Below, piece after piece: positions 8,170 through 63,520 of a stretch of 64,000 bases of DNA. Origin of the DNA: Oscillospiraceae bacterium (lineage in GTDB: Bacteria > Bacillota > Clostridia > Oscillospirales > CAG-272); NCBI GenBank assembly GCA_015064445.1, contig SVSE01000003.1:150324-214323 (forward strand), read 5' to 3'. How positions within the stretch are numbered: position 1 is the stretch's first letter; each line of letters opens with the position of its first letter. The notes under the pieces are model-generated. The model saw only the letters and a program-made list of their open reading frames with translations, was not told where the DNA came from and ran no database searches. Both the position numbers and the translations under genes were made by a program.

Positions 8170-9304
8170 TAGCCCATCCCTCATGGTTTGACTGATACTG
8201 TCTTGCGATTGCAAGAGCGCCAGAGTTTACATCATCTGTTATTGTCGAGCCTGCTGCGATATATGAACCTGCACCGATTGTCAATGGAGCAATTAGGTTG
8301 ACCCCTGTGCCGATAAATGCATCATCTGCTATCTTACACTCGGTTACCTTTTTACCATCATAATTTACTGTACGAACGCCTGTGCCGATTGTTACTCTTT
8401 GTCCGATTTCGGTATCGATTATTGTAGAATGCTCGTGAACGGTAGAGCCAACTCCGAGAGTTGTTGAGCGAAGCTTAGAATAAGAGAGCACTCTTGAACG
8501 CATAAGAAGGTGGCACGAGCTGTCGATGTGACAATATGGCCCAACCTCTACCTCTTTTTCGATTGTTGATGCATATACATAGCTACTGTCGATTACACAG
8601 CCCTCACAAACGATAGAGCCAGAAATTACAGTATTAGGACCGATAAGACAGCCCTTTCCTATGGTGGTGTGTCCACAAATTTGTGTGTTTGGCAAAATCG
8701 TTGTGTCCTTGCCGATTGTTGCGCCTGCCGAGATTACAATTCCGTCACGAAGGTCGATATTCACGCCGTTTTCGCAAAGATAATCAAGAAATTCCTCTCT
8801 ATATCTTTCTCTGCGACGAATATATTCTCTTTTTGAGGCGGGAGTCGCCTTTTCATCTCCGAACGACTGACTCTCACAGGTAGCGCCACAGTTTCCTATC
8901 ATTTTAAGGAAGTCGTATGGTGTTGCGATTGTTTCCTCGGAGATAAGCTTTCCTGTGCCGATTGTGGCATAAAGGGAGCTTGCGTTTCCGACGGTTGCAT
9001 AAGCGAGGTCGTTTGTGTCAACAAAGCGAATAGCGTCCTCAATCCACTCCCTTTTCGCCAAAAACGCGAGGGGATGTGTGAATATAACGATGTCCTCGAG
9101 GTCGCAATTAAGCTCTGAGGTTACGCCCTCAAGAGTGTACGACGCCGAGCGAACAATCTCGCAATCTATTTTAAGATGATTTACCGCATCTATAAATTTG
9201 CGATAGGTATGCTCATAAATTGGGGAGAAAAACAAGGTGTCCTTATCTACATTAAGATACTCAGACTCCTGTGCCCTGCATACTACAATAAAAACCTTTT
9301 TCAT
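8153..9304 (-). CDS. GlmU-like protein with an intact left-handed beta-helix acetyltransferase domain and a degenerate N-terminal nucleotidyltransferase domain
   Basis: The C-terminal hexapeptide repeats and NYDGKK..IGTGVNLIAP..AAGSTIT resemble GlmU. The N-terminus lacks the LAAGxGTRM signature. The protein is 383 aa, versus about 455 aa for typical GlmU. Confidence 0.6.
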   Translation of the reverse strand: MKKVFIVVCRAQESEYLNVDKDTLFFSPIYEHTYRKFIDAVNHLKIDCEIVRSASYTLEGVTSELNCDLEDIVIFTHPLAFLAKREWIEDAIRFVDTNDLAYATVGNASSLYATIGTGKLISEETIATPYDFLKMIGNCGATCESQSFGDEKATPASKREYIRRRERYREEFLDYLCENGVNIDLRDGIVISAGATIGKDTTILPNTQICGHTTIGKGCLIGPNTVISGSIVCEGCVIDSSYVYASTIEKEVEVGPYCHIDSSCHLLMRSRVLSYSKLRSTTLGVGSTVHEHSTIIDTEIGQRVTIGTGVRTVNYDGKKVTECKIADDAFIGTGVNLIAPLTIGAGSYIAAGSTITDDVNSGALAIARQYQSNHEGWARRRKK

Positions 9305-9389
9305 ATTTTTTCCTACTCCAAAGCATTATTTTACAGAGTAATTATAGCACAAAACAAATAGCCTTTCAAGACTAAAATCGCATAACTAC

Positions 9390-9418
9390 TTTACAAATTA
9401 TTATTTTTGTGTTAAAAT
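9390..9418 (+). promoter_or_regulatory. Sigma-A-type promoter upstream of gdpP
   Basis: TTTACA, a 17-nt spacer ending in TGT, then TAAAAT. Confidence 0.5.
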
Positions 9419-9478
9419 ATACTATAATTTATATTTTAAGCGCACATAGTACGCACAATATAGGAGATTTATAAATTT

Positions 9479-11488
9479 ATGTACGAAAAAAAGGAAAAGC
9501 TATCTATATACTCGATTCTCTCGGGCATTATTTGTCTTGCCCTTGGCGTCGGAACTGCTGTTTTGGCAGTTTTTTGGAGCGCAAGAAGACCGTCCAGCTG
9601 GCTTCTTATTATGATTGCCCTTGGTCTTATCTTCGTTTCCCTCTCGATATGCACCTTTATCGCCTTAAAGGCAATCGAAAGAAAAAGACGAGTTGACGGT
9701 CCAAGTGGCCCTGTGCTCGGCTCTATTATGTACGATATGGTAAACACCGCAAGCGAGCCTGCGCTTATTTGCGATGAAAACAAGAGAATCATTTGGTTCA
9801 ACCACTTCGCGCAAAGGGCGTCTGGCATTTCAACCTCTCTTCTCGGCAAGGGGCTTAGCGTTATTATGCAGAATCCGTTGCCTGATGAAAACGACAAGAA
9901 ATCGAGCGAAAGACAAATCATCACCGAGCTTGCAGGTCAGACTTACCTCGTCGATGTAACAAGAATTCACGCAGACAAGGTTTACAGCCTGCTTATGTTC
10001 CGTAATATTACCGAGCAGGCGCGCCTTGAAAAGTTCGTGCGTGATGAGGACAAGGTTGTTTCTTATGTTATTGTCGATAACCTTGAGGAGCTCGTTCAAT
10101 TCGAACAGGAAAACTATCGCTCTGCTTCAAGCACCATTGAGACAATTATGCGTGAATGGGCATCGAGCGTTAATGGTATTTTGAAGGAATATGAAAAGGA
10201 TAAATATATATTTATCTTCCGTAACGAGGACCTCGAAAAATTCGTTGAGGACAAGTTTGACATTCTTGATAAGATAAGAGATGTTCGTGTTGGTGGTAGC
10301 GCTATACCTCTTACCGTTTCTATCGGTGTTGCAAAGGTTAGTGGCTCACTTGCCGATAAGGAAAAGGCTGCACACATCGCCCTTGATATGGCGCTTCAGC
10401 GTGGTGGTGACCAGGCTGTTGTTAAGTATGATGAGGCTATTGCCTTTTTTGGTGGTAAGACAAGCACGGTACACAAGAAAACAAAGGTTAAGGCAAGAGT
10501 TGTTGGTACAAAGCTCGCCTCACTTATGGCAAGCGCATCTAATGTTATCATTATGGGACACAAGTTCCCTGACTATGACGCATTCGGTGCGAGCGTTGGT
10601 CTTGCAAGATTCGCTATGTTCTGTGGCGTTAAGGTAAATATTGTAACCGACCCTAAGAACCCTAACATTAAGAAGTGTCTTAAATTCTTCGATGGCGATG
10701 AATACAAGGGAATGTTCGTTGACGCAGCAAGAGGCCTTGACCTCATTAAGAGTGAAACTCTTCTCGTTATCACGGATGTAAACAATCCTGCGATGTTCGA
10801 GTCTATCGATATTTACAACAATGTTTATAATGTGGTAATAGTTGACCACCATAGAAAGACCGCTGAAAGCGAGAGAAATCTCGCAATCGAGTATATCGAC
10901 CCGTCCTCGTCAAGTTCGAGTGAGCTTGTTTCGGAGATGCTCGAGCAGACTGTTCCACCATCAACTCTTAGAAGAGTCGAGGCGAATATGCTTTTGGCAG
11001 GAATTTCGCTTGATACCAAGCAGTTTACAAAGGGCACTGGTGCTAAAACCTATGCTGCCGCTATGTATCTTCTTACCTCAAATGCCTCATACGAGGGCAT
11101 TCAAGACCTTTTCAAGACAAGCATTGTCGATTACAGACAAATTGCAAAGTTCGGTCAAAAGGTTGAGGTTTATCGTAACAGTATGGCTATCGCTGTCAAC
11201 TTCGAGGTTGGCGACTCGAGCACTGACCGTTCACTTGCTGCAAAGGCGGCAGACGGACTTCTCGGTGTTGAGGGCGTTAGTGCGTCCTTTGCTCTTATGC
11301 AGATAGAGGACACAATTCACATAAGCGCGCGCTCGAACGGTAGCGTTAATGTTCAGCTCATTCTTGAAAAGCTCAAGGGTGGCGGACGCTATGATTCAGC
11401 TGGCGCACAGCTCAAGAGTGCTACAATTCAGCAGGCGCTTTTGAAGCTTAAGCACGCAATAGACAGTTATTTCGACTTGGAGGACTAA
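9479..11488 (+). CDS. gdpP: GdpP-type cyclic-di-AMP phosphodiesterase (TM-PAS-degenerate GGDEF-DHH/DHHA1)
   Basis: Two N-terminal TM helices, DHH motifs ([17 protein letters not shown]) and a GGGR..AGAQ DHHA1 motif. It occupies the conserved position upstream of rplI-dnaB. Confidence 0.85.
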
Positions 11489-24800: not shown

Positions 24801-24891
24801 GCGAAGCGTGCTTCGCAATGAAATCCCGCTGGGATGAAATCCGTCAAGGACGGATGAAATCCACCTTTGGTGGATGAAATCGCTTCGCGAT
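24801..24891 (+). repeat. Hairpin-linker array, GAA/ATC..GAT family (5 consecutive hairpins)
   Basis: GCGAAG/CTTCGC is followed by ATCCC-GCT-GGGAT, ATCCGTC-AAG-GACGGAT, ATCCACC-TTT-GGTGGAT and ATCGC-TTC-GCGAT. The ATC..GAT hairpins are joined to one another by GAA. Confidence 0.9.
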
Positions 24892-54308: not shown

Positions 54309-55937
54309 ATGAAAAGCAAAAGACTAATTCTCTGCCTTGCTTTCGTTTTTGCCCTTATGCTCGCGCTCGCAATCAGCTCTTACGCCGCGACTATCACTAT
54401 TCACAGTGGCGCAGATAGCACTTCCCCCTCTACCGAGTATAATGGCTCGATTACCTTGGCAGGCAACACCGAGGCAGACGAAACCGTAACGGTTTATTTT
54501 GCCGACGATGGCAGAGCCTGGAAGGCAGGCGAGACGGTATCCTTTAAGGAAAACACCGTCCTTTACACAATTGAATGTACAAAAATTTCAACCGCTGCTG
54601 AATGGAACGCTGCAACAAATGGCAACTATATTCTTGTTAATCATTTGGACTTTAACTTTGAAATACCAAAGGCTGACGGAAGTGGTGGAGAAGGCTCTGG
54701 CACTCGTAATAATGCCGGTGGCTCAATGGAATTGGCTCAAGGCTCCACAACAAGAGTGTTCTTTAATGGTTATACCATAGGAAATGGTAACGCGATGATG
54801 TTCTCTGGAAAAGATGTAAGCATTTCTTTGCTCGGAACAGGTAAGATAAATTCTTACTGGGGTGGAAGAATTTTCAGCCTCTCATTTACCGCGAATGCTG
54901 ATTCAACAATCCTTGTTGGTAAGAACATTGTTGCGAATAGCGACTGGACAAATAAGGTAGCATTGATAGGCATCAATGAATATAAGGCTACTTCAAAGCT
55001 TGACATTCATTTTTACGGTTCGTTCACAAAGGGACATTTTATAAGTCAAAACCAAACTCCTACAACCGGCTCGTACAATGTATATCTCCACGAGGGATGC
55101 GATCTTAACCTTCCAAACTCTAACGACGGCGGTAGATTTATTGCAACTGCAACAACCCCTATTGCCAATGTTTTCATTGACGGTGGTACTTATACATTCC
55201 CAAGAGAAAATTTGTTTGCTGACAATGCTGAATTTTCAAGATTCCAAATGAACATTACCGGTGGTACATTTAATTTCAGCTATGAATCCACTATGACATT
55301 CTTTAAAAACAGCATAGATCAGGAATCCAAGGCTCAAGACCTTAACGCAACCTCATTCAAGGTAGTTTGCAAGGAGTGTGATTATATAAAGACCTTGGGA
55401 GATGACTTTGTAAATCTTGCAACCGACTTTACAATTAACAACTATTGCCCAAATTGCAAGTCAGTCGGTACATCAACAAGCGTTGAGAAGGTATTTACAA
55501 CAAAGGGCTACTCTGTCAGCCAAAGTGGAACAGCAATTGACGGTGGCTACGGTGTAAATCAAAAGAGCCTTGCGCTATACGAGAGCGTTGTTGGCGAGGT
55601 AAAATACGGCATCGTAATTGCAAATGCCGATATGTTTGGTGGCAAGAGCTTCTTTGATGAAAATAACAAGGTAAACACCGAATGGGCAGTACAGATTGAA
55701 ATCGATGGTCAGTATAGCATATTTAGCTGCTCTATCGACTTCGGCACAACCTCAAATAGCTCGCTTAACCTTGTAATTTGCGCTTATGCTGTGGATTCCA
55801 CGGGCGCAAGCTTCATTCAGCATTCCACAGGCGATGCAGTTGCTTCGAGCAAAATCGCAGGTGGCGCATTCAAGAGCATCACTCTTGATATGATAGCAAC
55901 AGAGCCAGCTATCCTTTCAACAGGTAAAAACGACTAA
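54309..55937 (+). CDS. Secreted protein of unknown function with a C-terminal CxxC module and 'GYSV' domain
   Basis: Signal peptide MKSKRLILCLAFVFALMLALAISSYA. The C-terminal ~160 aa align with the C-termini of the 2521 and 30876 proteins. Confidence 0.65.
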   Translation: MKSKRLILCLAFVFALMLALAISSYAATITIHSGADSTSPSTEYNGSITLAGNTEADETVTVYFADDGRAWKAGETVSFKENTVLYTIECTKISTAAEWNAATNGNYILVNHLDFNFEIPKADGSGGEGSGTRNNAGGSMELAQGSTTRVFFNGYTIGNGNAMMFSGKDVSISLLGTGKINSYWGGRIFSLSFTANADSTILVGKNIVANSDWTNKVALIGINEYKATSKLDIHFYGSFTKGHFISQNQTPTTGSYNVYLHEGCDLNLPNSNDGGRFIATATTPIANVFIDGGTYTFPRENLFADNAEFSRFQMNITGGTFNFSYESTMTFFKNSIDQESKAQDLNATSFKVVCKECDYIKTLGDDFVNLATDFTINNYCPNCKSVGTSTSVEKVFTTKGYSVSQSGTAIDGGYGVNQKSLALYESVVGEVKYGIVIANADMFGGKSFFDENNKVNTEWAVQIEIDGQYSIFSCSIDFGTTSNSSLNLVICAYAVDSTGASFIQHSTGDAVASSKIAGGAFKSITLDMIATEPAILSTGKND

Positions 55938-55957
55938 AAATAAAAGGACGGAATTTA

Positions 55958-56250
55958 GCGTGTTATCCTTAACGGAGAACACGCATCGAGATAAATCCCT
56001 CGCGGGATTTTCGATATACGCCTATGGCGTTCGATATGTGCTGACGCACTCGATATGTTTGCTGCGCAAACGAGGGATTTATCTCATATCGAGTTCGAGC
56101 AGCCGGGGTTCCCCGAAGCGAAGAATGAGCTTTTGGGGTTCGCAGCGTAGCGAGAACATATCGAGTGGGCAAAGCCCACATATCGACAGAAAGAAAAACA
56201 AGAGCAAGAGTACAAGGAGAAAATCCTTATATTCTTGCTCTGTTTGTTTT
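55958..56250 (+). repeat. Hairpin-linker array, ATATCGA/TCGATAT family, copy B (inverted relative to copy A), with a nested GGGGTTCCCC element and a terminator-hairpin module
   Basis: Its central ~114 nt differ at one position from the reverse complement of 43490-43604. Confidence 0.9.
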
Positions 56251-56290
56251 ATTGATTAAATTATAGCATATAACGCGCACCTTTTCAATA

Positions 56291-56327
56291 AAAACAAGAA
56301 AACAGCCACTCCTGTGACTGTTTTTTG
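56291..56327 (-). terminator. Intrinsic terminator ending the microcompartment/ParA operon
   Basis: On the minus strand: AACAGTCAC-AGGA-GTGGCTGTT (contains one G-U pair) followed by a T-rich tract. Confidence 0.65.
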
Positions 56328-56346: not shown

Positions 56347-56706
56347 TTATAGCAAATATATCGGTAGCTCTTCTCCAATTCCGAAATACTCGAACTCTTT
56401 TCCAGCAATTCTTGTTGCAATCTTAACAGGAGCAAGCTCAGGCTCCTTTTCAAGGCTCTTTTTTGGAGCAACCTTTTTGGGTGTCGCCTTTGGTGCGCTC
56501 TTAGGTGTAGTCTTTGCTAGCGCTTTCTTTGGGGCGCTATTTGTTGTCTTTGGTGCGGTTTTTGGTGTAGCCTTTGCCACTGTCTTTTTTACAGGTGGCT
56601 TCTTTTCCTCTACTACTGCGCTATTTTCCATATCGGGCGCAGTTGTCTTAACATTTGAATAACCGTTGTTTGATATTCTGCTTATCGCATTCTTACCTAT
56701 TGCCAT
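56347..56706 (-). CDS. Small Lys/Pro/Ala-rich, predicted disordered protein (candidate ParA partner)
   Basis: AAGGAG RBS. The start overlaps the last 14 nt of the ParA gene. The central ~60 aa are (A/T)PK(K/T) repeats. It has no ParB or HTH motif and no tryptophan. Confidence 0.65.
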   Translation of the reverse strand: MAIGKNAISRISNNGYSNVKTTAPDMENSAVVEEKKPPVKKTVAKATPKTAPKTTNSAPKKALAKTTPKSAPKATPKKVAPKKSLEKEPELAPVKIATRIAGKEFEYFGIGEELPIYLL

Positions 56707-57484
56707 ATTCGATTATCTCCTTTGCTATATCCTTATATTCGAGGGCGCTTCTTGAATATTTCTTGTAAGCTACAACAGGCTTACTGTTATCCTGCGACCA
56801 CTCGATTGTGCTGTCTACCTTTACATAGTTCTCGAAAACTCGCACTCCATCGGTCTGACGGAGAGTTTTTAGCGTTTCCTTGAAGTAATTCTTTCTCTCG
56901 TCTGCCTTTGTTACCATAATTCCCATAATGTCAAGGCGAGGAGATATTTCCTTTACCTTGTTTATGAAATCGAACATATTTGCAAGACCGAAAAGTCCCC
57001 AAGGGCTTGCCTCAACAGGAATTATAACGAAATCCGAGGCGCACATAACATTCATTACCCAGCCACCAAGCGTTGGTGGTGCGTCAATTAGTATGTAATC
57101 GTAATAGCCACGCGCTCTTATGGGCTCAAGGCATTTTCTAAATACGATTTCTCTTTGCCACTTTGGGAAAAGCTCGAATTCAATGGCACTCATAAGCGAG
57201 GTTGACGGGATTATATCAAGCCCCTCATACTCGGTTGGCACAACAAAGTCGGACAAGTCCCTTTCCTCCTTAACTGCTGTGTATATGTTCTTGCCATTAT
57301 TTGAATATTCAAGCGCCCTTTCCTCATCAAAGAACGAAAGAGTTAGGTTTAACTGCATATCGCCATCGATTAAAAGCACCCTTTTGCCCATCATCGAAAG
57401 CGCACAGCCTATATTAGAACAGCTGGTGGTCTTGCCACTTCCACCCTTGTTATTCGCAAATGCGATTACCTGCGTTCTGCTCAT
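56693..57484 (-). CDS. ParA/Soj-family deviant Walker-A ATPase
   Basis: NNKGGSGKTT (with the signature Lys), IDGDMQLN and LIDAPPTLG motifs, 263 aa. Its start overlaps the stop of the pduV-like gene (ATGA). Confidence 0.85.
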   Translation of the reverse strand: MSRTQVIAFANNKGGSGKTTSCSNIGCALSMMGKRVLLIDGDMQLNLTLSFFDEERALEYSNNGKNIYTAVKEERDLSDFVVPTEYEGLDIIPSTSLMSAIEFELFPKWQREIVFRKCLEPIRARGYYDYILIDAPPTLGGWVMNVMCASDFVIIPVEASPWGLFGLANMFDFINKVKEISPRLDIMGIMVTKADERKNYFKETLKTLRQTDGVRVFENYVKVDSTIEWSQDNSKPVVAYKKYSRSALEYKDIAKEIIEYGNR

Positions 57485-57939
57485 CTTTTTCGCATAGCCT
57501 CCAATTCCTCTTTACTGTCTGCTAAAAATTCTATAAGAGCATCAAGCCCCTCGCCCGTGTAGGCGCTAACAGGGAAAATCCTCTTACAGCCTGCAAGCCT
57601 TAGCCATCTTTCAACTCTTTCGGGATTAGCATCAGGCTTGTCTATACCTGTGATAATACCAACAACCTCTCTGTTTACAAGGCTCGTAATACAGGGAGAG
57701 AAAATCGAATATGGCTCGTTTGCTGAAAGCACAAGTCCTACAACATCAGCCTCGTACGCATAAAGCGCGAGCGCTCCACTCGTCTGCCTTAGCTCCGTAT
57801 ACTCGCCCGGTGTGTCGATTATCGTATCAAGATAGTTTATATATTGTGTTTTATAGTAGTGAATTTCCTCACCATTAAGAGCCTGCGTCAAGGTCGTTTT
57901 ACCTGCCGCAACCCTGCCTATAAGAATAATCTTTTTCAT
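57481..57939 (-). CDS. pduV: EutP/PduV-family small GTPase
   Basis: P-loop GRVAAGKTTL, ~150 aa, in a BMC operon context. Confidence 0.8.
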   Translation of the reverse strand: MKKIILIGRVAAGKTTLTQALNGEEIHYYKTQYINYLDTIIDTPGEYTELRQTSGALALYAYEADVVGLVLSANEPYSIFSPCITSLVNREVVGIITGIDKPDANPERVERWLRLAGCKRIFPVSAYTGEGLDALIEFLADSKEELEAMRKR

Positions 57940-58298
57940 TATGTTCTTGTTATGTCACAGCAAACATAGAAAAGCTTGCTTGTAAAATATTCTCTTATCG
58001 CAGAAAATGCCGATTCAACGCTCGATACGCTTCCTGTGATAATAAGTGTTCCTGTAAATCTGTCTACAAATCCGATGTCTGCGCCCGATGCCTTGATGGC
58101 AATATCGGCAGCGATTACCGCACTCTCAGCAGGAGATACGGTCAAAACTCCGATTGCGCTTCTTGTGTAGTCGGTCTTTGGGTCAAGTCCGAGCTTTGTG
58201 TAAAGCACATCGTCGGGATTTGCAATTATATGGCAAAGAGTTATCTGCTTACCTGGGACAAGCTCCTGCACTATTCTCATATTTTCTTTAAGCTCCAT
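57939..58298 (-). CDS. pduU: Circularly permuted BMC shell protein (EutS/PduU type)
   Basis: Close resemblance to EutS: VPGKQxTLxHxIA..GxxTxxPxExxxIAxDxAxKA..GFxDRFxG. Confidence 0.85.
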   Translation of the reverse strand: MELKENMRIVQELVPGKQITLCHIIANPDDVLYTKLGLDPKTDYTRSAIGVLTVSPAESAVIAADIAIKASGADIGFVDRFTGTLIITGSVSSVESAFSAIREYFTSKLFYVCCDITRT

Positions 58299-58300
58299 TG

Positions 58301-59074
58301 TTAGCCTCCGATTTTACATTTAAGCCCCGAGGTTTCTGCCACTGACAAAAGATATTCCATCTTTTCCTTGCTTGGTGGCTCGATTTCCATAAGGGAATAT
58401 TTTCTTCCAAGTCCTGCGTACTTGTCCGTGCCTAATCTATGATAGGGGAGCAAATGATGCTCCTTGACGCCCGGTAGCGTTTTTGCAAAGTGCGATATCG
58501 CCCTTATCTCCTCAGGGGAGTCGTTAAAGGTTGGGATTACGGGCGTTCTTATAATAAGCTCAACTCCGCTCTCGGCGATTTTTCTTGCGTTTTCAAGAAT
58601 TCGCTCATTTCCCATGCCTGTATATTCCTTATGCTTTGCGCTATCCATATGCTTTATGTCCATAAGATAAAGGTCAACATAAGGGAGAATTTTTTCTATT
58701 TCCGAAAATGGTGCGCTTGCAGCCGACTCTACTGCTGTGTGGAGTCCCTCCTCCTTGCAGGCGATAAGCAATTCCTTCGCAAAATCTGCCTGACAAAGCA
58801 CCTCGCCTCCTGAAAGCGTCACACCCCCTCCGCTTCTGCGATAGTAGCGAAGGTCGGACAAGATTTCGGGCATAATGTCCGAAACGCTCACATCACGGCC
58901 AACTATTTTCGTCTTATCCTTTTCAATGAGCGTTTCGATTTCCTTGCTTTGAGATTCGGGATTACAGCACCACGCGCATCTCATATAACAGCCCTTGAAA
59001 AAGACAATTGTTCGAATTCCCGGTCCGTCGTGAATCGAGAATCGCTGAATATTAAATATTCTGCCCTGTGCCAT
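58301..59074 (-). CDS. Glycyl-radical enzyme activating enzyme (radical SAM), short form
   Basis: CYMRCAWC (CxxxCxxC) motif and GGEVL SAM motif, 257 aa. There is no additional CxxCxxCxxxC ferredoxin insert. Confidence 0.85.
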   Translation of the reverse strand: MAQGRIFNIQRFSIHDGPGIRTIVFFKGCYMRCAWCCNPESQSKEIETLIEKDKTKIVGRDVSVSDIMPEILSDLRYYRRSGGGVTLSGGEVLCQADFAKELLIACKEEGLHTAVESAASAPFSEIEKILPYVDLYLMDIKHMDSAKHKEYTGMGNERILENARKIAESGVELIIRTPVIPTFNDSPEEIRAISHFAKTLPGVKEHHLLPYHRLGTDKYAGLGRKYSLMEIEPPSKEKMEYLLSVAETSGLKCKIGG

Positions 59075-61653: not shown

Positions 61654-62199
61654 TTACATTTGCTTCCAAAGCTCCTCGTGTGGAGCTGGAATTACTGTAA
61701 ATGATGAGAGTGTAGACACGCTCTTTGCATAATTTGCGCCTGCCTCTACTGCCGCGGTAACATCTCCGACATCGCCTGTAATCATTACGACGCCCTTACC
61801 GCCCATTCCTCTTGAAACTCTTAGGTCATATATTTCCACCTTTGAGGTCTTAACTGCAATATCGGCTGCCTTGATTGCGCTTGGTGCTGAAAATGTTTCT
61901 ATAAGTCCAAGCGAGCCACTGCGTGAGCCAACCTGTGTGCCAAAAAGTGCCCTTATAACCTGCTCATCTATTCTTCCCATAACGGATGCGTCGATTACAT
62001 AGCCATCAAATCTGCTCTTGACATGCTCAACTGCAACAGTAACATCAGATATTGCTCCCGTAAGCACGATTTCGTACTTTCCTGGGCACGATGGATGCGA
62101 TGATACCATCTCAATTCCTGCACTCTTCAAGGCTGAGTCGGCTGCCTCAACGCCCTTAGGTATGCTTTTTAATTCAATAACGCCTATAGCCTTAAACAT
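61654..62199 (-). CDS. pduT: Tandem-BMC-domain shell protein (PduT type)
   Basis: Two BMC domains, a SCPGK motif at the PduT Fe-S Cys position, and a C-terminal PHEELWKQM resembling PduT. Confidence 0.85.
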   Translation of the reverse strand: MFKAIGVIELKSIPKGVEAADSALKSAGIEMVSSHPSCPGKYEIVLTGAISDVTVAVEHVKSRFDGYVIDASVMGRIDEQVIRALFGTQVGSRSGSLGLIETFSAPSAIKAADIAVKTSKVEIYDLRVSRGMGGKGVVMITGDVGDVTAAVEAGANYAKSVSTLSSFTVIPAPHEELWKQM

Positions 62200-62200
62200 T

Positions 62201-63520
62201 TTATCTTACCTTATCAATTATTATTTTGTTATTTCCAAGTGTTACTCTACCGTCAATGGATGCGTGCTGTGGAAGTGAAAGTCCCTCAGCCGGACTCGCT
62301 ATCAGCTGTCCCTTTGTAACCATATCTCCGTCCTTAACTGCAATAACGCTTGGTGCTCCTATGTGTGACGAGAGTGCAATTTCCACTCTGCCAAAGTCGT
62401 CCATTTCTCCACCAAAATCTGCCAGCTTATCGAATTTTGCAACGCCAAGCGCGCTCATCCATCTTTCATATGGAATCATTCGATATTCTCTTTCGGGCTG
62501 TACCTTGTAGTCACCGGGCACATCAAAGCGAAGCTTGTTTTTGGAGAGTATGCTCTTATAATTATCGATAACTGCTCTTGGCGATATGCCCTGATTGCAC
62601 GCAAGGCTCTCGCAAACTCCACAGCCACAGCAAAGCGTTGCGCTAAGCACCATCTCTGGCATAACCTCGGCAACTCCCATAGCTGTTCTTACCATTTTAT
62701 GAGGCTCAAGTGGATAGCCAAGCAGATTTCTTGGACACATATCGGTGCATCTTGTGCATTGACAGCAGGCTGTTTCAGCCCTTGCAACTGCCATTTTTGG
62801 GTTCATTCTCTTTGAAAGAATTGACTGTGAATCGTCAGGGAGAATCAATATTCCCTTTGTGGTCTTGCTTACCGAATATGTTGATACATTTATGAGCTTT
62901 CCCATTGATGGGCCACCGTCAATTACGGAATAGCCCTGTTTAACCTCTATGCCGAGTCTTTTGAAGATGTCGGCTACTTTTGTGCCCACGGGCACCTTTA
63001 TTACGGTTGGAGTCTTAACTGCTCCACCGATTGTGAGCCATTTTTCAGTTACAGGCTCAGAAAATCTTACAGCTCTTGCAAGATTATACATTGTTTCGAC
63101 ATTATAAACTATAATGCCCTGTGTAATAGGTAGCTTTCCTGGCTTTACAAGTCGTCCTGTTGCCTCGTATATAAGTCCGATTTCGTCGCCTATCGGATAA
63201 ACATCGGGCAGGGTTTTTATATATATCTTGTCGGCAAGCCTTTCGCCATCCTCAACGCCAAGGCGCTTGGCTGTGTGGTCCTTAATTGCCACGAGTGCCT
63301 TTGGTATGCCCGTGTGAGAAAGCACCTCCGAGATTCCTGTGAGAACCATGGACATCTCGTTTTTCAAGAGTATGTAGTCTGTGTACAAAAGTGGCTCACA
63401 TTCAGAGCCGTTGATAAGGAGGAGGTCTGCCCCCTCCGCAAGCTTAGCGTAAGAGGGGAACCCTGCTCCTCCAGCGCCCAAAACGCCGAATTCGCGCATT
63501 AAATTCTTAAGGTTCTGCAT
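62201..63520 (-). CDS. pduS: PduS/RnfC-like flavoprotein with SLBB domain and two 4Fe-4S motifs
   Basis: N-terminal GAGGAGFP motif, CCQCTRCTDMCP and CCGCGVCESLAC clusters, ~440 aa. Confidence 0.75.
   Translation of the reverse strand: MQNLKNLMREFGVLGAGGAGFPSYAKLAEGADLLLINGSECEPLLYTDYILLKNEMSMVLTGISEVLSHTGIPKALVAIKDHTAKRLGVEDGERLADKIYIKTLPDVYPIGDEIGLIYEATGRLVKPGKLPITQGIIVYNVETMYNLARAVRFSEPVTEKWLTIGGAVKTPTVIKVPVGTKVADIFKRLGIEVKQGYSVIDGGPSMGKLINVSTYSVSKTTKGILILPDDSQSILSKRMNPKMAVARAETACCQCTRCTDMCPRNLLGYPLEPHKMVRTAMGVAEVMPEMVLSATLCCGCGVCESLACNQGISPRAVIDNYKSILSKNKLRFDVPGDYKVQPEREYRMIPYERWMSALGVAKFDKLADFGGEMDDFGRVEIALSSHIGAPSVIAVKDGDMVTKGQLIASPAEGLSLPQHASIDGRVTLGNNKIIIDKVR

Follow-up and report, generated by a model that had tools for sequence, protein, structure and literature searches.

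The subject of this analysis is a 64,000-nt stretch of an Oscillospiraceae genome (contig SVSE01000003.1; called the window in the following), on the minus strand of which an operon for a glycyl-radical enzyme microcompartment (GRM) is visible from 56.3 to 64.0 kb. This bacterial microcompartment (BMC) operon ends with two overlapping genes, which encode a Soj-type ParA ATPase and a small, by prediction disordered protein, termed adaptor throughout the paper. The gene family stays with such operons in about 80 species, and the pair was inherited together with the BMC operon across many Clostridia. Based on comparative sequence data, it is reasonably likely that ATPase and adaptor form a positioning module for the glycyl-radical (1,2-propanediol-type) microcompartment and act as a functional counterpart of the McdAB system of carboxysomes. 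The operon was assigned to the B12-independent 1,2-propanediol type because its glycyl-radical enzyme was closest to the diol dehydratase of Roseburia inulinivorans (5I2A, 1198 bits).

A McdAB-like role in positioning metabolosomes had been proposed in the initial annotation of the window. The operon linkage and the McdB-like features of the adaptor, on which this proposal was built, were recovered. The ATPase turned out to be of the Soj type and no orthologue of McdA, and the idea was less novel than assumed. McdAB-like pairs at GRM and propanediol utilization (PDU) operons are already in print as a bioinformatic prediction, and the novelty is therefore modest. What the present analysis adds are the head and tail motifs found across the adaptor family, the size of this family and the hosts in which it occurs, its presence alongside Soj/Spo0J, the variant operons and orphan pairs, and an adaptor-like tail on PduV.

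Linkage of the pair to microcompartment operons

One genome per species was scanned for relatives of the window ParA, which yielded 80 loci with 63-91% identity. All of them came from Clostridia, mostly from metagenome-assembled genomes of ruminant and other animal guts. Using tblastn with the window proteins, PduV or BMC shell genes were found directly upstream of ParA in 79 of the 80 species-level loci. Thus, ParA followed by a small Lys-rich open reading frame (ORF) at the 3' end of GRM-type BMC operons, the arrangement for which a comparative genomics check had been suggested initially, is the rule in this family. The small ORF overlapped the parA stop codon in every untruncated locus, with one copy (L055) apparently frameshifted, and the overlap amounted to 14 nt in 76 and to 26 nt in 6 of 82 distinct loci. 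In nearly every related locus the gene immediately preceding parA was pduV, which overlapped it by 4 nt in 34 cases. Both overlaps given in the initial annotation were read in the window sequence: the pduV stop and the parA start share ATGA (4 nt), and the adaptor ATG at 56706, preceded by AAGGAG 10 nt upstream, lies 14 nt inside parA (overlap sequence ATGGCAATAGGTAA).

Five of six independent contexts found via divergent partner proteins were again the 3' end of the same operon type. Three divergent adaptor homologues ended such operons with different genes downstream (a GH106 gene, rpsR-ssb-rpsF, or helix-turn-helix (HTH) genes), and two far more distant homologues found with the adaptor profile did likewise. 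The genes 3' of the ParA-adaptor pair differed in every case. Operon variants were also observed. Three loci (L083, 1-7735; L084; L085) contained the same shell/core genes and the pair without the glycyl-radical enzyme and its activase, and a fourth (L081, 1-5749) combined a BMC operon and the pair without glycyl-radical enzyme, activase, PduU and PduV. Since the pair is present in these variants, it tracks the shell/core genes rather than the signature enzyme.

Type Ib par loci likewise have a ParA gene with a gene for a small basic protein behind it. The pair could accordingly be a type Ib-like DNA partition cassette for a chromosome region, a plasmid or an integrated element, standing beside the BMC operon by chance, an alternative that had been raised in the initial annotation. 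The genomic distribution argues against it, as the pair was found inside the operon, with overlapping genes, in about 80 species and with different flanks. No close relatives of the ParA were detected on 72,556 plasmids, on 50,697 phages or in IMG/VR, and the adaptor had no plasmid match. The best plasmid and phage ParA proteins were 40.5% and 36.6% identical to the window ParA, and a residence mainly on plasmids or beside centromeres, named beforehand as an outcome that would speak against positioning, was not observed. Searches with Pfam and NCBIfam and an AlphaFold2 (AF2) model revealed neither a ribbon-helix-helix or HTH fold nor a ParB/Srx domain in the adaptor. It thus differs from the folded centromere-binding partners of type Ib systems (ParF/ParG, δ/ω), whose adjacent repeats and mobile residence were missing as well, and from the type Ia CTPase clamp ParB with its ParB/Srx N-terminal and parS-binding HTH domains.

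The same genomes also possess a canonical chromosomal system. A soj-spo0J locus was located 6-9 kb from the GRM operon in L014 (16534-18211), L015 (18249-19929) and L023 (17750-19461), and true Spo0J proteins of 294-297 aa are encoded elsewhere in related genomes. The BMC ParA and the Soj encoded in the same genome shared 34% identity, and with a separate soj-spo0J present, the former represents an extra, dedicated paralogue. In L003, rpsR-ssb-rpsF directly followed the GRM operon (10343-11354). Both soj-spo0J and rpsF-ssb-rpsR are origin-proximal in Bacillus subtilis. From the gene order of these four loci, the microcompartment operon is close to soj-spo0J or rpsF-ssb-rpsR in several species.

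A repeat search of the window and a comparison with related loci found no conserved centromere-like repeat array near the pair. Just downstream of the pair, in the window and in L008 and L067, lies a repeat-rich element with TCGATATG motifs, which would suit a partition cassette. It is an intergenic repeat of about 270 nt with window copies at 55950-56270 and at approximately 43385-43640, which are about 95% identical apart from a 46-nt indel and contain several TCGATATG/CATATCGA motifs and long imperfect hairpins. L008, L067, L015, L019 and L024 contained incomplete copies. The repeat was rejected as a centromere or part of the module because it is dispersed, has the second window copy and was not present in the majority of loci. 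A strong sigma-70-like promoter match at 56288-56260 (minus strand) points into the copy at 55950-56270, for which Rfam returned sub-threshold noise only. The repeat may be a miniature inverted-repeat transposable element or a repetitive extragenic palindromic-like element, or an unknown small RNA. Taken together, a type Ib-like cassette as the explanation for the pair appears extremely unlikely.

Properties of the ATPase and the adaptor

The window ParA displayed the motifs of a classical ParA/Soj protein named in the initial annotation, namely a deviant Walker A box NNKGGSGKTT with the signature Lys13, the Walker A' sequence LLIDGDMQ (DGD at 40-42) and the Walker B sequence ILIDAPPT (IDAPP at 133-137). 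K13 and K18 were invariant in 17 diverse members of the BMC-linked ParA family. The profiles AAA_31 (E 2.5e-51, 174.5 bits, cut-off 27) and CbiA (E 4.8e-19, 69 bits, cut-off 25.4) matched well above threshold, while the protein stayed below every NCBIfam equivalog cut-off. In a fold search with the AF2 model (predicted TM score (pTM) 0.82) the nearest structures were B. subtilis Soj (9A6N) and Myxococcus xanthus ParA (8RAY), both with a TM score of 0.83. Motifs, profile scores and fold thus place the protein in the ParA/MinD (deviant Walker A) family. The best sequence matches were 8RAY (E 1.8e-32) and Helicobacter pylori Soj (6IUB, E 1.1e-26), and over the three proteins 9A6N, 8RAY and 6IUB identity was 30-33% and the TM score 0.80-0.83. 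A 357-aa protein from a 1816-bp ENA contig (P0065) was considered as a ParA-adaptor fusion and rejected; it proved to be a ParA in which about 95 residues are internally duplicated, probably an assembly artefact.

Weak matches of the window ParA to Fe-S carriers were also recorded (NUBPL/Mrp-type PF10609, E 1e-10; MrpORP, E 1.7e-5; Pfam and NCBIfam). They bear on the possibility that the pair helps to close the shell, control its size, load cargo or deliver Fe-S cofactors, with the adaptor bringing the ATPase to nascent shells. Fe-S proteins of the operon include PduS, BMC-T and the activase, and the linkage of the pair to the shell/core genes instead of the signature enzyme would fit such an assembly or maturation factor. 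However, the Soj-type matches were far stronger and the nearest folds were all Soj/ParA. By inspection, no CxxC cluster-binding motif was seen in the window ParA, and the only conserved Cys residues of the family, C118 and C148, are both isolated. With weak matches and neither CxxC nor a conserved Cys pair, the reading of ParA as an Fe-S carrier was rejected. Moreover, most characterised GRM, PDU and ethanolamine utilization (EUT) compartments assemble without such a pair. We therefore regard an assembly function as distinctly unlikely.

The adaptor matched no Pfam or NCBIfam family. Homologues numbered 64 in a sequence search and 76 in a profile search, and a full hidden Markov model (HMM) search of 1.84 billion representatives gave 556 clusters at E<=1e-3 and 256 at E<=1e-10. 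Both terminal motifs were present in 139 of 143 new top HMM matches. As far as the window adaptor is concerned, the initial description of a partner unlike ParB was accurate, with 119 aa, a K/R-containing N-terminus (MAIGKNAISR), an (A/T)PK-rich stretch at approximately residues 34-92, accompanied by internal DNA repeats in the gene, and the C-terminus GIGEELPIYLL. An AF2 model based on a 31-sequence alignment (pTM 0.13, mean predicted local distance difference test score 58.8) contained no fold, only a short helix and a C-terminal turn; the protein is predicted to be intrinsically disordered.

Conservation was counted over 80 distinct adaptor sequences. In the head motif, G4 and R10 were invariant (80/80), K5 was found in 79 and K9 in 67 sequences, and the motif was retained in distant members. 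The Φ-G-(K/R) core of the head recurs at the N-terminus of Spo0J in related genomes (MKKGLGRGLDSIF), and the head is a putative ParA-binding, ATPase-stimulating peptide. The second N-terminal block, of almost invariant consensus NNGYSNVKTxAPDMENS in the nearer clade, had N13, N14, G15, Y16, S17, V19, P24, M26, N28 and S29 unchanged in 31 aligned sequences and was missing from L075-L086. A further nearer-clade block, PKKS[L/M]ExEPxLxPVKT, was noticed at codons ~80-100, where it precedes the sole predicted helix. Adaptor length varied from 72 to 151 aa in the family, and the linker was unconserved in sequence, with a net charge of median +7 and down to -1 and an A+P+K+T content of about 51%. In the tail motif, P(-5), L(-2) and L(-1) were invariant, and position -3 was Y (65 sequences), H (11), F (2) or W (2). 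An acidic residue stood within about five residues of the C-terminal aromatic residue in 75 of 80, represented in the window adaptor by EE at -7 and -8. The tail is a candidate cargo (shell) docking peptide.

All features of the operon are summarized in Table 1. Gene identities were taken from Pfam and NCBIfam profile searches of the operon proteins and agreed with the operon order and gene assignments made initially. For the EutS/PduU-type shell protein, the EutS model of NCBIfam scored 100.8 bits, below its cut-off of 123. The single terminator, placed initially at 56291-56327, was found within a few nt of this position; its hairpin proper spans 56324-56299 on the minus strand with CTTGTTTTTA directly after.

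Table 1. Coordinates of the GRM operon genes, adaptor segments and terminator in the window
Feature	Position	Strand	Basis or remark
PduL C-terminal part (PTAC)	63795-63995	-	Pfam; gene cut by window end
EutN	63541-63789	-	Pfam
PduS-like flavoprotein	62201-63520	-	Pfam
Tandem-BMC shell protein (BMC-T)	61654-62199	-	Pfam
Glycyl-radical enzyme (diol dehydratase), 843 aa	59095-61626	-	Pfam PFL-like + Gly_radical
Radical-SAM activase	58301-59074	-	Pfam
EutS/PduU-type shell protein	57939-58298	-	Pfam BMC domain; nearest NCBIfam model EutS
PduV/EutP-family small GTPase-like protein, 152 aa	57481-57939	-	Pfam PduV-EutP E 2.6e-50; TIGR02528 143.2 bits (cut-off 138.35)
Soj-type ParA/MinD-family ATPase, 263 aa	56693-57484	-	Pfam AAA_31 + CbiA
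Small disordered (predicted) adaptor (McdB-like), 119 aa, isoelectric point 9.9	56347-56706	-	3' of and overlapping parA
Adaptor head motif, codons 1-11, MAIGKNAISRI	56674-56706	-	family-wide M-[P/S/A]-[I/V/L]-G-K-x-[A/S]-[I/L]-x-R-[V/I]
Adaptor second N-terminal block, codons 12-29, SNNGYSNVKTTAPDMENS	56620-56673	-	nearer clade only (ParA >=67% identical)
Adaptor variable Lys/Ala/Pro/Thr-rich linker, codons 30-108	56383-56619	-	(A/T)PK repeats
Adaptor tail motif, codons 109-119, GIGEELPIYLL	56350-56382	-	family-wide Φ-G-x-[E/D]-[L/M]-P-x-[Y/H/F/W]-L-L-COOH
Intrinsic-terminator-like hairpin and T tract closing the operon	56289-56324	-	11-bp stem, 4-nt loop, then CTTGTTTTTA

Elsewhere in the window, a full-length match to the Gut-1 RNA family (RF01706; 59.2 bits, gathering score 50) was found at 24816-24885 on the plus strand. 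Several long ORFs without a Pfam match lie amid GH35/GH38 glycoside hydrolase genes: two adjacent ORFs of 625 aa each (43660-45537 and 45548-47425, both minus strand), one of 586 aa (40001-41761, minus strand) and one of 542 aa with a hydrophobic N-terminus (54309-55937, plus strand).

Proposed positioning mechanism and known systems

In the mechanism that we propose, ATP-bound ParA dimers would coat a cellular matrix, most likely the nucleoid. A C-terminal peptide, acidic-Pro-x-Tyr-Leu-Leu, would anchor the adaptor on the outer face of the microcompartment, and the long basic linker would let the N-terminal Φ-G-K-x-x-Φ-x-R peptide reach ParA dimers and attach to them. The N-terminal peptide would stimulate ATP hydrolysis by ParA, as the N-terminal peptide of ParB does. 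The resulting local depletion of ParA would make the compartment move up the ParA gradient by a Brownian ratchet, as for McdAB (PMC8262871). Compartments would in this way repel each other and be spaced, unclumped and shared between daughter cells. Our confidence in the nucleoid step is lower than that in the overall role.

Proteins of this kind have been noticed at microcompartment loci before. ParA (PF01656) was counted among the ancillary genes of BMC loci by Axen 2014 (PMC4207490). In the section of MacCready 2021 on other microcompartments, McdA/McdB-like genes were described in or near four non-carboxysome BMC operon types (PMC8359340 section 2.9, Fig. 8f), with Tyr replacing Trp within the last four residues of the McdB-like proteins. 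The relevant text of both surveys gives Tyr or Phe within the last 4-5 residues and acidic residues nearby for putative non-carboxysome McdB-like proteins (PMC8359340; PMC11321042 Fig. 4 text). In the corresponding part of Basalla 2024, McdAB-like pairs are explicitly named for PDU and GRM, and Tyr was largely able to replace Trp in McdB of Synechococcus elongatus (PMC11321042). A 2025 review lists McdAB-like positioning of non-carboxysome BMCs as untested (PMC13052382).

Compared with the text descriptions of these published GRM/PDU pairs, the window pair is the same in that a ParA-type gene precedes the gene of a small, by prediction disordered protein in or next to the GRM operon, and in a C-terminal Tyr within the last four residues with acidic neighbours. 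The adaptor shows the traits listed for McdB: it is small, encoded directly 3' of the ATPase gene, charged at the N-terminus, disordered by prediction and biased in composition, and acidic near the aromatic residue. The pair therefore agrees with every published descriptive feature of a non-carboxysome McdB-like system and departs from the carboxysomal one in the Trp. In the passages bearing on such pairs, the published surveys consist of four examples and a logo and do not contain the Φ-G-K...R head, the family size, the restriction to gut Clostridia or the tail on PduV.

Among the characterised systems, α-McdAB of Halothiobacillus neapolitanus (type 1 α-McdB) is comparable in the signature Lys of the ATPase and in the partner gene directly downstream in or next to the BMC operon, according to the sections concerned (PMC8359340 sections 2.7-2.8). 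Its McdB is described there as likewise small and almost fully disordered, without coiled coil, with a charged N-terminus and with a C-terminal aromatic residue beside acidic neighbours. In contrast, no homology between the two partner proteins was detectable, the invariant Trp of α-McdB corresponds to Tyr or His in the adaptor family, and a proteobacterial carboxysome as cargo with demonstrated function stands against a Firmicutes GRM with an inferred one. The β-type McdA of Cyanothece PCC 7424 (6NON/6NOO/6NOP) shares the ParA/MinD fold (TM score 0.78) and the deviant Walker A box with the window ATPase, but it ranked only 22nd in the fold search, with 20-21% identity, and the window ATPase is nearer to chromosomal Soj/ParA. 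To our knowledge, McdAB function has been demonstrated for carboxysomes only. ParB/Spo0J and the adaptor both have a short peptide at the N-terminus in which a Φ-G-(K/R) core is combined with an invariant basic residue (ParB motif, PMC12462528). The adaptor differs from Spo0J in having no CTPase/HTH domain and no parS, and the ATPase differs from Soj in the loss of the PRNVRLSE arginines; soj-spo0J is separate in the same genomes.

We are aware that several observations weigh against a McdAB-like positioning module. Support for the role comes from comparative genomics. Two of approximately 86 independent loci carried the pair without a BMC gene within 10 kb, namely L080 (Konateibacter massiliensis NZ_LT860098.1, 10001-11102), with a GNAT gene upstream and an Fe-alcohol dehydrogenase gene downstream, and L088, a contig from Hadza gut with an orphan pair at 9223-10363. 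The Trp that defines McdB is missing from the window adaptor, which ends in IYLL, and from 78 of 80 relatives; this absence, already pointed out in the initial annotation, fits the Tyr/Phe variant described for non-carboxysome McdB-like proteins in the relevant parts of PMC8359340 and PMC11321042. Furthermore, the window ATPase was not orthologous to carboxysome McdA in a comparison made against the β-type of Cyanothece only (E 4e-13 versus 1e-26 to 2e-32 for Soj/ParA). As the types of McdA are themselves polyphyletic (PMC8359340), the missing orthology has no bearing on function. The arginines of the Soj motif PRNVRLSE were replaced in the window ParA by KVDSTIEW, in a segment modelled at low confidence. 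In M. xanthus ParA, R238 sits in this motif, and the R238E variant is without non-specific DNA binding (PMC12462528). For these two reasons nucleoid binding by the window ParA, and with it the nucleoid as ParA matrix, is uncertain. Finally, the histone-H1-like linker of the adaptor could itself bind DNA.

The missing arginines would also suit an ATPase that acts at the membrane or the cell pole like MinD, FlhG or PpfA instead of along the nucleoid. The ParA/MinD family includes several non-nucleoid positioning systems. However, no C-terminal amphipathic membrane-targeting helix was seen in the window ParA on inspection of its C-terminus and the AF2 model, the protein ending with ...KEIIEYGNR directly after the last core helix, and a MinD-like reading was rejected because nothing of this kind extends beyond the core fold. 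MinD/FlhG structures were also more distant than Soj (TM scores of 0.66-0.70 versus 0.83). In addition, two Soj-type DNA-contact positions were conserved: R197, at the position of R189 in B. subtilis Soj, was invariant, and K202, at the position of K199 in H. pylori Soj, was nearly invariant in the ParA family. Positioning at membrane or pole is therefore very unlikely.

Another use of the nucleoid would be a direct tether, with the linker binding DNA non-specifically, the C-terminus binding the compartment, and ParA only modulating or releasing this contact, so that no ratchet would operate. Such a tether would fit the strongly basic (median +7), A/P/K-rich linker, the precomputed Pfam matches of several adaptor homologues to PF07382 (histone-H1-like HC2), the absence from ParA of the PRNVRLSE arginines that Soj uses for DNA binding, and the PduV tails of related loci, which are K-rich even where the terminal motif is missing (see below). 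On the other hand, a charge down to -1 and the unconserved sequence and length of the linker are unexpected for an essential DNA-binding element, and the invariant G-K...R head together with the obligate parA overlap argues that engagement of ParA is central. Moreover, disordered proteins of biased composition work as McdB without known DNA binding (PMC8359340). We consider the direct tether unlikely, and the ParA-driven positioning of the microcompartment remains our preferred reading.

A tail motif shared with PduV and its implications

The C-terminal motif was searched in all ORFs of 89 loci and the window. Among 2671 ORFs of at least 80 aa, 106 ended in [WYFH]LL, of which 84 were adaptors, 19 were PduV proteins and 3 were others that look spurious. 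The 19 PduV loci (L001/L002, L031, L034, L040-L042, L044, L047, L053, L056-L059, L062, L063, L066, L071) belong to a clade with 69-75% ParA identity. Their PduV carries a Lys-rich extension of 20-55 aa with an end of the (D/P)-T-W/Y-L-L type, such as GLDTWLL, LPTWLL, LETYLL or similar. In the sister loci L003, L027, L036, L049, L050, L054, L060, L061 and L064, PduV has the Lys-rich extension and no terminal motif, and the window PduV has no extension.

Since two different proteins of the operon carry the same basic linker and aromatic-Leu-Leu end, a common docking site is the simplest reading, and this site is most likely on the outside of the shell. We tentatively suggest, as an idea that we hold with more doubt than confidence, that a basic linker followed by acidic-(Pro/Thr)-x-aromatic-Leu-Leu-COOH may be a portable external shell docking signal, used by the ParA adaptor and, in some species, by PduV/EutP. 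Such an external tag is set apart from the amphipathic encapsulation peptides, which carry cargo inside. A role in positioning Pdu compartments has been proposed for PduV (Parsons 2010, cited in PMC8262871), and an acetate kinase function was reported for EutP (Moore and Escalante-Semerena 2016, cited in PMC4827028). PduV/EutP is encoded directly upstream, coupled to parA, and resembles the adaptor in the tail that it has in the 19 loci; its NTPase fold is unlike that of ParA. If the suggestion is true, this would be the first tag defined by sequence that addresses proteins to the outside of catabolic microcompartment shells, the adaptor would be a minimal McdB consisting of a ParB-like head, a spacer and a tag, and ParA and PduV would compete or cooperate at the same shell site.

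On the spacing and inheritance of catabolic microcompartments (PDU, EUT, GRM), a 2021 review could refer to a single PduV study, published in 2010 (PMC8262871), to which a review of 2025 adds only that the shell protein PduK has a role (PMC13052382). The value of the present finding is tempered by the fact that the concept was already published as a prediction and that nearly all carriers are uncultured. It does supply concrete reagents, namely a 263-aa ATPase, an adaptor of about 100 aa whose head (11 residues) and tail (7 residues) lend themselves to mutation or transplantation, and a natural control in those species where PduV bears the tail as well. The engineering of synthetic compartments would also profit from a defined tag on the shell exterior. 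Members of the family abound in Clostridia of the ruminant and other guts that ferment 1,2-propanediol derived from fucose or rhamnose, and in these bacteria, as far as the conserved gene arrangement and motifs indicate, the pair probably spaces and partitions the organelle.

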